Shown piece after piece: positions 17,394 to 25,727 of a stretch of DNA of 64,000 nt. The position numbers were made by a program, and so were the translations under genes. The DNA is from Escherichia coli. GTDB taxonomy: Bacteria; Pseudomonadota; Gammaproteobacteria; Enterobacterales; Enterobacteriaceae. Where the stretch lies: assembly GCF_030013205.1 (NCBI RefSeq), contig NZ_CP122648.1. One strand, given 5' to 3'. Position 1 is the stretch's first letter, and every line of letters begins with the position of its first letter. A model generated the notes under the pieces. That model saw only the letters and a list, made by a program, of their open reading frames with translations, ran no database searches and was not told where the DNA came from.

Positions 17394-17574
17394 ACGCCCC
17401 TTTCTTTATAGTGGGAAAGGGCAAATATAAAAATTCCCCTAAGTATTTCGCGTTGCAGGAAGGAAGCAAGCGAGCATCTCCCAGGAGCATAGAAAACTAT
17501 GTGACTGGGGGAGGCGAGTGCGGCTGACGAACCTGCGGCGTGAAAGACGACGGGGAACCTCTGGAGAATCTGTG

Positions 17575-22958: not shown

Positions 22959-24308
22959 TTAGATAGCCCAGCCACCCGCATAGAAGGTCACCAGCGCCAC
23001 AGCGATAACGACCGTACCGATGTTCAACTTGCGCCATTCGCCGGAAACCAGACGACCAATCACCAGAGTCGCGAAGCCGATCATGATGCCTGTTACGATG
23101 TTACAGGTCAGCACGATGAATACCGCCGTAACCAGACCCGCCATCGCATCAACAAAATCAGCAAAGTCGATTTTCGCCACGTTACTCAGCATCAGCAGGC
23201 CAACGTACATCAGCGCCGGAGCCGTTGCATACCCCGGAACGAGGTAAGAGAGCGGAGAGAGGAACAGAATCAGCAGGAACAGCACGCCAACGGTGATAGC
23301 CGTCAACCCGGTTTTACCGCCCGCCGCCGTACCCGCCGCAGACTCGATGTATACCGCTGCCGGAGCTGCACCCACCAGGCCAGAGAAAACGCTGCTCATG
23401 GAGTCGGTGGTCAGTGCTTTCCCACCGTCAATGATCTGCCCATCTTTATCCAGCAGGTTCGCCTGACCGGCGACGGCGCGGATAGTTCCGGTGGCATCAA
23501 ATACTGCCGTCATCACCAGCGCCAGAACGCTTGGCAGGACTACAGGATTCAGCGCGCCCATAATGTCCAGGCTACCAATCAGTGAATTGCCGTTTTCATC
23601 GCTCAATGAAGGCATGGCGAAAACGCCGGAGAAATGGACGTTAGGATCGAAGATCAAACCGACAATTGAGATACCGATAATGGTCAGCAGAATGCCACCA
23701 GGGACTTTCAGTTTTTCCAGGCCGATGATCACCGCCAGACCTACCAGTGACATAATCACCGGGAAGGTCGCGAAATCACCCAGCGCAACGGGCAGACCAT
23801 CAAGCGGGTTTTTAATCACCAGACCGACACCATTAGCGGCAATGAGCAGCAGGAACAGACCGATACCGATCCCCGTGCCGTGCGCCACACCGTGCGGCAA
23901 GTTGCGCAAAATCCAGCTACGGATACCCGTGGCAGAAATTACCGTAAACAGTACACCCATCAGGAACACAGCACCCAGCGCGACAGGTACGCTAATATGT
24001 TGCCCCAGCACCAGACTGAATGCGGTAAACGCCGTCAGGGAGATGGCGCAACCAATCGCCAACGGCAGATTAGCCCACAGACCCATCACGATAGAACCGA
24101 GTCCGGCAACCAGACAGGTCGCAACGAAAACTGCCGCAGGCGGGAAGCCTGCTTTACCCAACATGCCTGGAACGACGATAACCGAGTAGACCATCGCCAG
24201 AAATGTTGTTAACCCGGCAACCACTTCCTGACGGACAGTGCTTCCACGTTGTGAAATTTTAAACCAGGCGTCGAGTGAACCGCCGGTACGCGCTGATGGC
24301 GTAGACAT
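22959..24308 (-). CDS. ghxP: Guanine/hypoxanthine permease GhxP (NCS2/AzgA family, 449 aa)
   Basis: 449-aa polytopic membrane ORF; recognised as YjcD/GhxP by sequence and synteny next to soxR. Confidence 0.85.
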
Positions 24309-24413
24309 AAGAAAACATCCCCTGAGAGTTTAATTTTCGTCAAGATGCGTGGCGGACAATCCCCTGCCAGCGAAACGTTATCTTCCTGCTCCAGGTTTGC
24401 GACAAATTGGTGC

Positions 24414-24427
24414 GTCGCAAAAAAGCA
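24414..24427. promoter_or_regulatory. Candidate PurR box upstream of ghxP
   Basis: AGCAAACGTTTAGC matches the GCAAACGTTT core of the PurR operator, ~110 bp upstream of the ghxP start. Confidence 0.35.
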
Positions 24428-24564
24428 AACGTTTAGCTCCGCGCATACAAAACGGGTGGTAAAAAAAGCAAACGATTATCCGGCGATCATAGCGGCTTTT
24501 TCAACCGAAGTTTGCTGCTTTTTTCTCTTTTATTGTCTTGACGATGAAAAACCAGGCAATTGAT

Positions 24565-24580
24565 GCGCAAACGTTATCGT
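24565..24580. promoter_or_regulatory. Second candidate PurR-like box
   Basis: GCGCAAACGTTATCGT (compare consensus ACGCAAACGTTTTCGT). Confidence 0.3.
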
Positions 24581-24829
24581 CGATGCGCAAGATTGCAGCG
24601 TTATCGAGCCATATACCGTTCAGGATTGCGATAAAAAATCGTCTGAGATGACAAAAATATTGCGGCTAAAAAGTGTACTTTTACTCTGGCGAAGAAACGC
24701 CGGTGACATACAATTAAAGCATCAACACCAACCGGAACCTCCACCACGTGCTCGAATGAGGTGTGTTGACGTCGGGGGAAACCCTCCTGTGTACCAGCGG
24801 GATAGAGAGAAAGACAAAGACCGGAAAAC

Positions 24830-24860
24830 AAACTAAAGCGCCCTTGTGGCGCTTTAGTTT
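24830..24860. terminator. Palindromic terminator at the soxR 3' end
   Basis: AAACTAAAGCGCC-cttgtg-GCGCTTTAGTTT perfect 13-bp inverted repeat. Confidence 0.7.
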
Positions 24861-25318
24861 TGTTCATCTTCCAGCAAGCGTGCGCCTGTGCCTTCTTCTC
24901 CTAAGCGGTCGCCCGGGTTACGCAATGGGCAATCACTGCGCGAAAGGCAGCCACAACCAATACATCCGTCCAGCTCGTCACGCAGCGCCACTAAGGTATG
25001 AATGCGCCGATCCAACTCTTCTCGCCATTGGGACGAAAGCTGTTTCCACTCTTTCGCACTTAATGTATGCCCTTCGGGCAACACGCCGAATGCTTCACGA
25101 ATGGTCGCCAGCGGAATGCCAATACGCTGAGCAATTTTGATGATTGCGACATATCGCAACACATCACGTTTATATCGCCGCTGATTGCCACTATTACGGA
25201 TACTGCTAATCAACCCTTTGCTTTCATAGAAATGCAGCGCCGATACCGCCACACCGCTGCGTTTTGCCACTTCGCCGGGGGTTAGCAGCGCTTTAATGCG
25301 GGGTAATTTCTTTTCCAT
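24854..25318 (-). CDS. soxR: Redox-sensitive MerR-family activator SoxR (154 aa)
   Basis: MerR-type N-terminal HTH; C-terminal [2Fe-2S] motif [12 protein letters not shown]. Confidence 0.95.
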
Positions 25319-25329
25319 AAATCGCTTTA

Positions 25330-25347
25330 CCTCAAGTTAACTTGAGG
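25330..25347. promoter_or_regulatory. SoxR operator within the soxS promoter spacer
   Basis: Perfect 18-bp palindrome CCTCAAGTTAACTTGAGG in the soxR-soxS divergent region. Confidence 0.9.
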
Positions 25348-25403
25348 AATTATACTCCCCAACAGATGAATTAACGAACTGAACACTGAAAAGAGGCAGA
25401 TTT

Positions 25404-25727
25404 ATGTCCCATCAGAAAATTATTCAGGATCTTATCGCATGGATTGACGAGCATATTGACCAGCCGCTTAACATTGATGTCGTCGCAAAAAAATCAGGCT
25501 ATTCAAAGTGGTACTTACAGCGGATGTTCCGCACCGTGACGCATCAGACACTTGGTGATTACATTCGCCAACGCCGCCTGTTACTGGCCGCCGTTGAGTT
25601 GCGCACCACCGAGCGTCCGATTTTTGATATCGCAATGGACCTGGGTTATGTCTCTCAGCAGACCTTCTCCCGCGTTTTCCGTCGGCAGTTTGATCGCACT
25701 CCCAGCGATTATCGCCACCGCCTGTAG
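25404..25727 (+). CDS. soxS: AraC-family superoxide-response regulator SoxS (107 aa)
   Basis: 107-aa ORF consisting only of the AraC dual-HTH domain; divergent from soxR. Confidence 0.95.
   Translation: MSHQKIIQDLIAWIDEHIDQPLNIDVVAKKSGYSKWYLQRMFRTVTHQTLGDYIRQRRLLLAAVELRTTERPIFDIAMDLGYVSQQTFSRVFRRQFDRTPSDYRHRL

Follow-up and report, generated by a model that had tools for sequence, protein, structure and literature searches.

Is uptake of guanine and hypoxanthine in Escherichia coli under the control of the purine repressor PurR, and which of the operator-like motifs upstream of the permease gene ghxP (yjcD) serve that control? The question arises from a 64,000-nucleotide (64-kb) stretch of contig NZ_CP122648.1 (assembly GCF_030013205.1), hereafter the window, in which a 545-bp intergenic region separates ghxP from soxR. 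The DNA of this locus is identical or near-identical in more than 5,400 complete E. coli genomes. An earlier, sequence-only reading of the window had pointed to three GCAAACG-containing motifs upstream of ghxP and had taken them as PurR-like operators that would link the uptake of guanine and hypoxanthine with purine repression. They are indeed PurR boxes, and PurR control of ghxP is already known, having been published between 2011 and 2013; we put the probability that the 545-bp region is the ghxP control region and that ghxP belongs to the PurR regulon at about 0.85. The additions made here are modest and consist of the layout of the boxes round the promoter, a box (M2) that covers the -10 hexamer together with the transcription start, an invariant spacing between this box and an upstream one (M3), and a structured leader RNA outside the Rfam families.

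All three motifs were found on the plus strand; the position given for the first one did not hold, as it lies at 24424 and not at 24414 (10 too low). On that strand AGCAAACGTTTAGC spans 24424-24437 and AGCAAACGATTATC spans 24467-24480, within the 16-mers named M1 (24423-24438) and M2 (24466-24481), respectively, and GCGCAAACGTTATCGT at 24565-24580 constitutes the 16-mer M3. A fourth, weaker look-alike, AGCGAAACGTTATCTT at 24369-24384 (M0), had been missed. A scan with a PurR position weight matrix (PWM), which the sequence-only reading had proposed as a check, covered about 128,000 position-strands of the window, the matrix being built from the 27 other motifs found by chromatin immunoprecipitation on microarrays (ChIP-chip) in Table 1 of Cho et al. 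2011, with the yjcD motif omitted against circularity. The 27 training sites score 12.2 to 24.7 bits on their own matrix (weakest 12.15). Two of the boxes took ranks 1 and 2 of the window and the third rank 6 (Table 1), and the top match outside this region, at rank 3, reached 12.45 bits. Both M1 and M3 are 16-bp imperfect palindromes resembling ACGCAAACGTTTGCGT, with a central CG and a score inside the ChIP-defined range.

The motif cluster is real and not due to chance. The heptamer GCAAACG alone is not enriched window-wide (15 matches, 16.3 expected), and three of its 15 matches fall within 150 bp on one strand, about 0.14 being expected per 545-bp region. None of 5000 dinucleotide-preserving shuffles of the intergenic region gave two matches of at least 18 bits; three matches of at least 11 bits arose in 0.02% of them, and a single match of at least 18 bits in 0.14%. 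M1 and M2 also share a 17-nt direct repeat, AAAAAAGCAAACG(T/A)TTA, whose copies lie 43 bp apart.

Occupancy and expression are documented in the literature. The adenine-dependent PurR ChIP-chip regions of Cho et al. 2011 (PMC3159470, Table 1) include one named 'ryjA/yjcD', with the motif ACGATAACGTTTGCGC, which is the reverse complement of 24565-24580 and hence M3. This region (old K-12 coordinates 4,275,855-4,276,485, corresponding to 24325-24955 of the window) displayed an enrichment of 2.08 with adenine and none without it (PMC3159470). In Sastry et al. 2019 (PMC6892915) ghxP is a member of the PurR-1 iModulon and the M3 site is given at 4278206 (Supplementary Table 4), and Rodionova et al. 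2021 restated PurR repression of ghxP. Kozmin et al. 2013 (PMC3809563) cited Marbach 2012 for PurR-dependent repression of ghxP by adenine and reported a 4-fold down-regulation of ghxP with the adenine precursor HAP. PurR thus occupies the region in vivo in an adenine-dependent manner and ghxP expression follows PurR, so that the proposed tie between guanine/hypoxanthine uptake and purine repression is borne out by ChIP-chip, iModulon and adenine-repression data. The published sources differ in the site they name. A regulon reconstruction from 2015 (PMC4576408, supplementary file 3) lists M1 as a yjcD site at -130, among the sites shared with RegPrecise, and puts M0, at -76, forward as 'additional' (PMC4576408), and M2 was not found in any of the published site sources that report M3 or M1 (Cho 2011, Sastry 2019, PMC4576408). 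ChIP and comparative genomics point to different boxes, M3 and M1, respectively, which are equally strong; single-site database entries for ghxP are therefore incomplete.

The boxes were then placed relative to the promoter. Among positions 24250-24900, the pair TTGAAA/GATAAT was the sole sigma-70-like match on the ghxP strand, agreeing at 10 of 12 positions. A b4064 transcript (NC_000913.3 4278317-4279876, forward strand) is listed among the SMRT-Cappable-seq data (PMC6131387, Supplementary Data 1), with 86 and 52 start-site reads on two table sheets, the first headed M9_TTS (PMC6131387). Window positions (w) were converted to K-12 positions (k) by k = 4277933 + (24854 - w), a conversion that returns the annotated positions of the ghxP start (4278479) and of the ryjA ends. 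The published start agrees with the only promoter-like match of the scan and leaves a 5' untranslated region (UTR) of about 162 nt. No entry for the ghxP start site was found in the Kim 2012 supplements, nor were entries for ghxP, ryjA or sraL found in the accessible part of the 3'-end tables of Adams 2021. The transcript begins (T)GCTTTTTTT (24460-24470, minus strand), with a partly conserved T-run at +3 to +9. Such a T-run at the start of a transcript recalls the UTP-sensitive reiterative transcription at codBA, upp and pyrBI.

Relative to this start, M3 spans -110 to -95 (centre about -103), upstream of the core promoter, and M2 spans -11 to +5 (centre about -4), over the -10 hexamer and +1. 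M1 spans +33 to +48 (centre about +40) in the early transcribed region, and M0 spans +87 to +102, deeper in the leader. The positions of M2 and M1 are those of promoter or early-transcribed operators, and that of M3 is atypical: M2 and M1 are the boxes placed for direct repression, and it is M3, some 100 bp upstream, that the binding-based papers report. A second promoter near M3 was considered and dropped, the scan having found none on either strand and no acceptable -10 hexamer being visible by eye.

The layout was compared across 80 ghxP loci from different Enterobacteriaceae species, whose proteins are 90-100% identical. PWM detection recovered M3 in 79, M2 in 78 and M1 in all 80 loci, the latter with scores of 13 to 22 bits. 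In a 560-bp alignment, the boxes, the -35 and -10 hexamers and the Shine-Dalgarno region appeared as conserved islands within poorly conserved sequence, and the box positions that do vary are tolerated by the matrix or already off-consensus (positions 4-5 of M3, position 3 of M1). M2 reads AGATAATCGTTTGCCT in many genera, where it scores 14.1 bits and falls within the ChIP-defined range. Its stretch GATAATCGTTTGC, invariant in 79 of 81 sequences, extends beyond the -10 hexamer into -4 to +3, and promoter function alone would not explain the invariance there. The distance between M3 and M2, two boxes detected independently, was 99 bp, without exception, in 78 of 78 loci; the 83-bp spacer has a mean identity of just 62%. 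Other distances varied: from 43 to about 206 bp between M2 and M1, and from 106 to 182 bp between M1 and the ATG. Insertions of about 45-160 bp lie between the core promoter and M1 in several genera (L039, L043, L044, L054, L077 and other loci), some of them with palindromic segments resembling repetitive extragenic palindromes (REP-like); as a consequence, the 5' end of the UTR is variable. The structured domain described below keeps its distance to the ATG. In Salmonella, Enterobacter, Klebsiella and most other genera, sraL and the ghxP control region are kept apart by a 222-aa glutathione S-transferase (GST)-like open reading frame (ORF) on the same strand as ghxP (for example L007, 1487-2155). 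The position of sraL was taken from 19 loci; in those genera it is about 0.7 kb farther off and M3 stays with ghxP. The ORF was not found in Escherichia, one Citrobacter and one Trabulsiella locus.

Around M3, a heptamer TTGCGCA stands out as near-invariant (Table 1). A second copy, 20 bp from the first, is formed at 24564-24570 by the end of M3 and one flanking base and is also near-invariant in the 77 sequences; its core TGCGCA is a palindrome. The heptamer is also backed by a direct repeat, D8, with two copies of GATGCGCAA.

From this layout we infer which boxes would be bound and the part each would play. The sigma-70 promoter starts ghxP transcription on the minus strand at about 24470. 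With ample hypoxanthine or guanine, PurR and its corepressor, as a dimer, occupy 16-bp boxes of this region and lower ghxP transcription, which stops the uptake of the very bases that activate PurR. PurR on M2 would block the binding of RNA polymerase and PurR on M1 would act as a roadblock soon after initiation. The probable part of M3, given an M3-M2 spacing that stays at 99 bp throughout, is to raise local occupancy or to cooperate with M2.

Downstream of the start, the 5' UTR itself appeared to be structured. An alignment (A2) of 66 distinct leaders, running from 14 nt before M1 to the ATG, supports a domain of four helices (P1 to P4; Table 1) that was drawn by eye. Standard pairs occupied 90.8% of its cells, compared with 30-52% when the partners were slid by one to three columns. 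Both sides changed in 13 pairs (7.9 ± 1.4 in shuffled alignments, none of 500 shuffles reaching 13), with 134 double-change cells versus 32 in shuffles. The covarying pairs were unevenly spread, with five in P1 (for example columns 7:122, AU 40, CG 14, UA 4), all seven of seven in P3, one in P2 and none in P4. The P2 pair joins column 17, in M1, with column 92, in M0 (CG 27, UA 25, UG 11). Since the structure had been drawn by eye, all 13,861 column pairs were also scored by mutual information with average-product correction, and ranks 1, 2, 4 and 5 went to pairs of P1, P3, P1 and P2, respectively. The many G-U pairs (e.g., 25:84, UG in 47 sequences) fit the ghxP-sense strand only. A compensated, conserved structure is therefore present on the mRNA strand, within the 5' UTR.

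A covariance model built on this domain detected the leader in 13 divergent or insertion-bearing loci outside the model alignment (E 1e-5 to 4e-24). Double changes occurred there in 17 of 31 pairs, in an alignment that was fitted to the model and is thus biased towards the structure. Within the window the leader was found once only, a second match at 17424-17496 (E = 0.79) being noise that aligns to the Shine-Dalgarno-like tail alone. Other approaches gave less: the single-sequence fold energy was ordinary (z = -0.31), RNAalifold by itself recovered P3 only, and a terminator scan displayed no intrinsic terminator or attenuator in the leader. No Rfam family matched it either, as a scan of 23800-25500 with Rfam 15 at E <= 1 returned sraL alone. 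RNAalifold also paired a CCxCC stretch (columns 111-115) with the GGGG of the Shine-Dalgarno sequence, in columns that are near-invariant and without compensatory changes. A leader peptide was rejected, since the 22-codon ORF from ATGCGCGG does not keep its start codon, the ATG being absent from Enterobacter and Kluyvera, and since the length of the T-run varies. In the K-12 genome the paralogue ghxQ (L083 15122-16489) lies 35 nt after guaD in the xanQ-guaD-ghxQ cluster and has no leader of its own, so that the structured leader is specific to ghxP.

The helices also bear on M0. As a fourth operator, as proposed in PMC4576408, M0 did not hold: its score was 9 bits or more in only 5 of 80 loci, and its covariation with M1 is that of an RNA helix. 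M0 is best explained as the 3' strand of P2, the pairing partner of M1, rather than as a conserved operator, and it resembles a box because a palindromic box and its RNA complement look alike. At columns 21/88 of A2 (24432/24376), the A to U change at M1 position 7 in six sequences (AAT variants, Kluyvera-like) faces a U to C change in M0. This double change, which restores no standard pair, ranked 19 of 13,861 by mutual information and could reflect a register shift or a non-pairing constraint.

Several observations weigh against a role for every box as laid out above, and some of them are also what an M3-only arrangement would draw on. M3 would then be the sole working operator, M1 being box-like through the constraint of helix P2 and M2 through the -10 hexamer and start region. 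Both published assignments that derive from binding or expression name M3 only, and the ChIP-chip region spans all four motifs and cannot separate the occupied boxes; moreover, yjcD goes unnamed among the significantly changed array genes in the main text of Cho 2011 (PMC3159470). In E. coli, M2 falls just under the ChIP-defined range, with 11.1 bits against the 12.15 of the weakest of the 27 training sites, and its left half contains GATAAT, the -10 hexamer, which would be conserved anyway. The left half of M1 pairs with M0, with covariation at columns 17/92, and part of its conservation may thus not be owed to PurR. Two further points bear on the layout itself: the mapped start lies just 4 nt past the -10 hexamer and may be off by 1-2 nt, and the location of M3 at -103 would be uncommon for a simple repressor. 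PurR, a dimer, is not known to form loops. Other features of M1 and M2 make an M3-only arrangement unlikely. M1 is the top PWM match in 64 kb, at a strength that few shuffles reached, and its right half GTTTGCTT is invariant, although the leader model leaves most of it unpaired. M2 has an invariant CGTTTGC at -4 to +3 that is not needed by the promoter and is partly untranscribed, and the score of M2 in many genera is that of ChIP-defined sites.

Binding mainly by another LacI-family regulator with a similar half-site, e.g., RbsR, appears very improbable. LacI-family operators share the core AAACGTTT, the left half of M0, AGCGAAAC, resembles the rbs operator, and the M0 half-site is un-PurR-like at positions 2-4; against this, a PurR-specific matrix scores M1 and M3 like genuine PurR sites, PurR ChIP-chip enrichment is at the top of the scale here and adenine-dependent, ghxP shares the PurR-1 iModulon with the pur genes and co-varies with them, and M0 lacks conservation as a box. 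That M3 would serve the divergent ryjA/sraL instead of ghxP is suggested by the name that Cho et al. gave to the region, 'ryjA/yjcD', and by the location of M3 in E. coli, where it is flanked by the start sites of both genes and is 148 bp away from the ryjA start. The tie of M3 to ghxP, kept at 99 bp from the -10 region even where the GST-like gene separates sraL, leaves little room for this assignment. Least probable of all is a cluster without function, arisen by chance likeness or as the remnant of a local 43-bp duplication: the direct repeat shared by M1 and M2 and the lack of window-wide enrichment of the heptamer would fit it, and they are outweighed by the absence of two strong matches from all 5000 shuffles, by the retention of the boxes in about 80 species as their flanks diverge, and by PurR binding of the region in vivo.

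Membership of ghxP in the PurR regulon, with boxes round its promoter, was then set beside known systems. The single pur operators (purF, purHD, purMN, purT) have the same 16-bp imperfect palindrome with a central CG and the same logic of PurR with hypoxanthine or guanine, and M3 and the purHD box ACGAAAACGTTTGCGC agree at all positions but one. Among PurR motifs, 44% lie between the -35 and -10 elements (Cho et al., PMC3159470). Compared with these single operators, the strong boxes of ghxP flank the core promoter (-103 and +40), and the weak M2 is the only one to overlap it. Autoregulation of purR reportedly proceeds via two operators after its start, and purB is said to have an intragenic operator. 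M1 at +40 fits this class of downstream operators, in which PurR past the start site forms a roadblock, and binding within the reading frame is mentioned for purB and purR by Cho et al. (PMC3159470). At ghxP, however, the downstream box is combined with an upstream and a core box and lies inside a structured leader. The adenine permease gene adeP (yieG/purP) is another PurR-repressed nucleobase permease gene (PMC3159470), with two PurR-like boxes at -147 and -115 (PMC4576408). These are 32 bp apart, whereas M3 and M2 are separated by 99 bp at ghxP. In the gal operon, the dimeric LacI-family repressor GalR forms a repression loop with HU between two operators, OE and OI, which lie on either side of the promoter and are always about 11 helical turns apart. 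The 99 bp at ghxP, or 9 turns if a turn takes 11 bp, would be compatible with this, with a phase that depends on the helical repeat assumed. The likeness is only an analogy for the fixed spacing.

For the leader, the nearest functional parallel would be the guanine riboswitch reportedly found upstream of pbuG, the hypoxanthine/guanine permease gene of Bacillus subtilis, which is said to fold into a multi-helix junction. Both are structured 5' leaders before a gene of the same function. The ghxP leader gave no match to this family (RF00167) at E <= 1, and differs from it in helices, size (about 106 nt) and conserved nucleotides; it would be a candidate element only. Positions 24385-24396 of the leader (minus strand) read GCACA(R)GGAG, conserved and unpaired, and the Shine-Dalgarno region at 24316-24324 reads CAGGGGAUG; leader and Shine-Dalgarno region together thus hold two GGA motifs of the kind that CsrA binds. 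Within the literature collection searched, no paper was found linking ghxP or yjcD to a riboswitch, a UTR element or CsrA. A regulatory, signal-responsive role for the leader is put forward as tentative. It is possible, if somewhat doubtful, that the leader is an undescribed cis-regulatory RNA, metabolite-sensing or protein-binding, which would have co-evolved with the PurR box M1 embedded in P2. A separate possibility is cooperation of PurR between M3 and M2 across 99 bp, in the manner of the gal loop.

Table 1. Features of the ghxP-soxR region, in window coordinates
Feature	Position	Strand	Basis and remarks
ghxP (yjcD) coding sequence	22959..24308	-	Guanine/hypoxanthine transporter, 449 aa; ORF list and RefSeq annotation of identical DNA
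ghxP Shine-Dalgarno sequence AGGGGA	24318..24323	-	9 nt before ATG; CTCAGGGGA near-invariant across species
Structured 5' UTR domain, four helices	24343..24448	-	+23 to +128 of the mapped transcript; 66-sequence alignment A2
Helix P1, long-range closing	24440-24448 with 24343-24351	-	
Helix P2, left half of M1 with M0	24428-24438 with 24369-24379	-	
Helix P3, hairpin	24414-24420 with 24397-24403	-	
Helix P4, hairpin	24360-24364 with 24352-24356	-	
PurR-like motif M0, AAGATAACGTTTCGCT	24369..24384	-	PWM 8.0 bits, rank 22
PurR box M1, downstream operator, AGCTAAACGTTTGCTT	24423..24438	-	PWM 18.8 bits, rank 1 in window
PurR-like box M2, core operator candidate, GGATAATCGTTTGCTT	24466..24481	-	PWM 11.1 bits, rank 6
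ghxP transcription start	24470	-	SMRT-Cappable-seq; accurate to 1-2 nt
ghxP -10 hexamer GATAAT	24475..24480	-	18-nt spacer; inside M2; invariant across species
ghxP -35 hexamer TTGAAA	24499..24504	-	Promoter scan; GTTGAAAA invariant across species
PurR box M3, upstream operator, ACGATAACGTTTGCGC in ghxP sense	24565..24580	-	PWM 18.3 bits, rank 2
Heptamer TTGCGCA	24584..24590	-	3 nt upstream of M3; near-maximal information content in 77 distinct M3-anchored sequences
ryjA/sraL small RNA	24721..24861	+	Divergent from ghxP; Rfam RF01408; K-12 ncRNA ryjA 4277926-4278066
soxR coding sequence	24854..25318	-	ORF list and annotation; borders the intergenic region

The sequence-only reading had also guessed that the small RNA ryjA might lie in the same intergenic region, and both the Rfam sraL model and the K-12 annotation place it there. 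The covariance match to RF01408 is full-length (model positions 1-142) and reaches 153.3 bits (E = 3e-36), the Rfam gathering threshold being 39; the RNA of the window is a member of the sraL/RyjA family without any difference and lies beside the PurR boxes as a separate element. Its terminator hairpin, detected by the terminator scan at 24830-24860, overlaps the 3' end of soxR. This hairpin is perfect over 13 bp, its complement also fits the sraL terminator model on the minus strand at the soxR end, and it is likely a bidirectional terminator of ryjA (plus strand) and of the soxR end (minus strand). Some E. coli genomes (strain 118UI, L082 around 765-945) carry an insertion of about 178 bp at the ryjA terminator and soxR 3' end, at a point corresponding to about 24863 of the window. 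About 27 bp (GCCCTTGTGGCGCTTTAGTTTTGTTCAT) are duplicated there, and the insert, with palindromes of the GGGTGAGGG/CCCTCACCC type, resembles a small repeat element. The insertion is not present in the window and leaves the PurR boxes unaltered.

That M3 always lies 99 bp from the core promoter hints at cooperation over a distance; such cooperation is unexpected for a dimeric repressor and, if true, would be a new behaviour for PurR. The leader is notable as a covariation-supported structure without an Rfam family that precedes a purine permease gene in the best-studied bacterium. It would represent a new class of regulatory RNA if it senses a purine-related signal, and a minor annotation if it only stabilises the mRNA. 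A regulatory role, if true, would mean that Enterobacteriaceae also control the uptake of purine bases post-transcriptionally, at a gene whose Bacillus counterpart has a guanine riboswitch.

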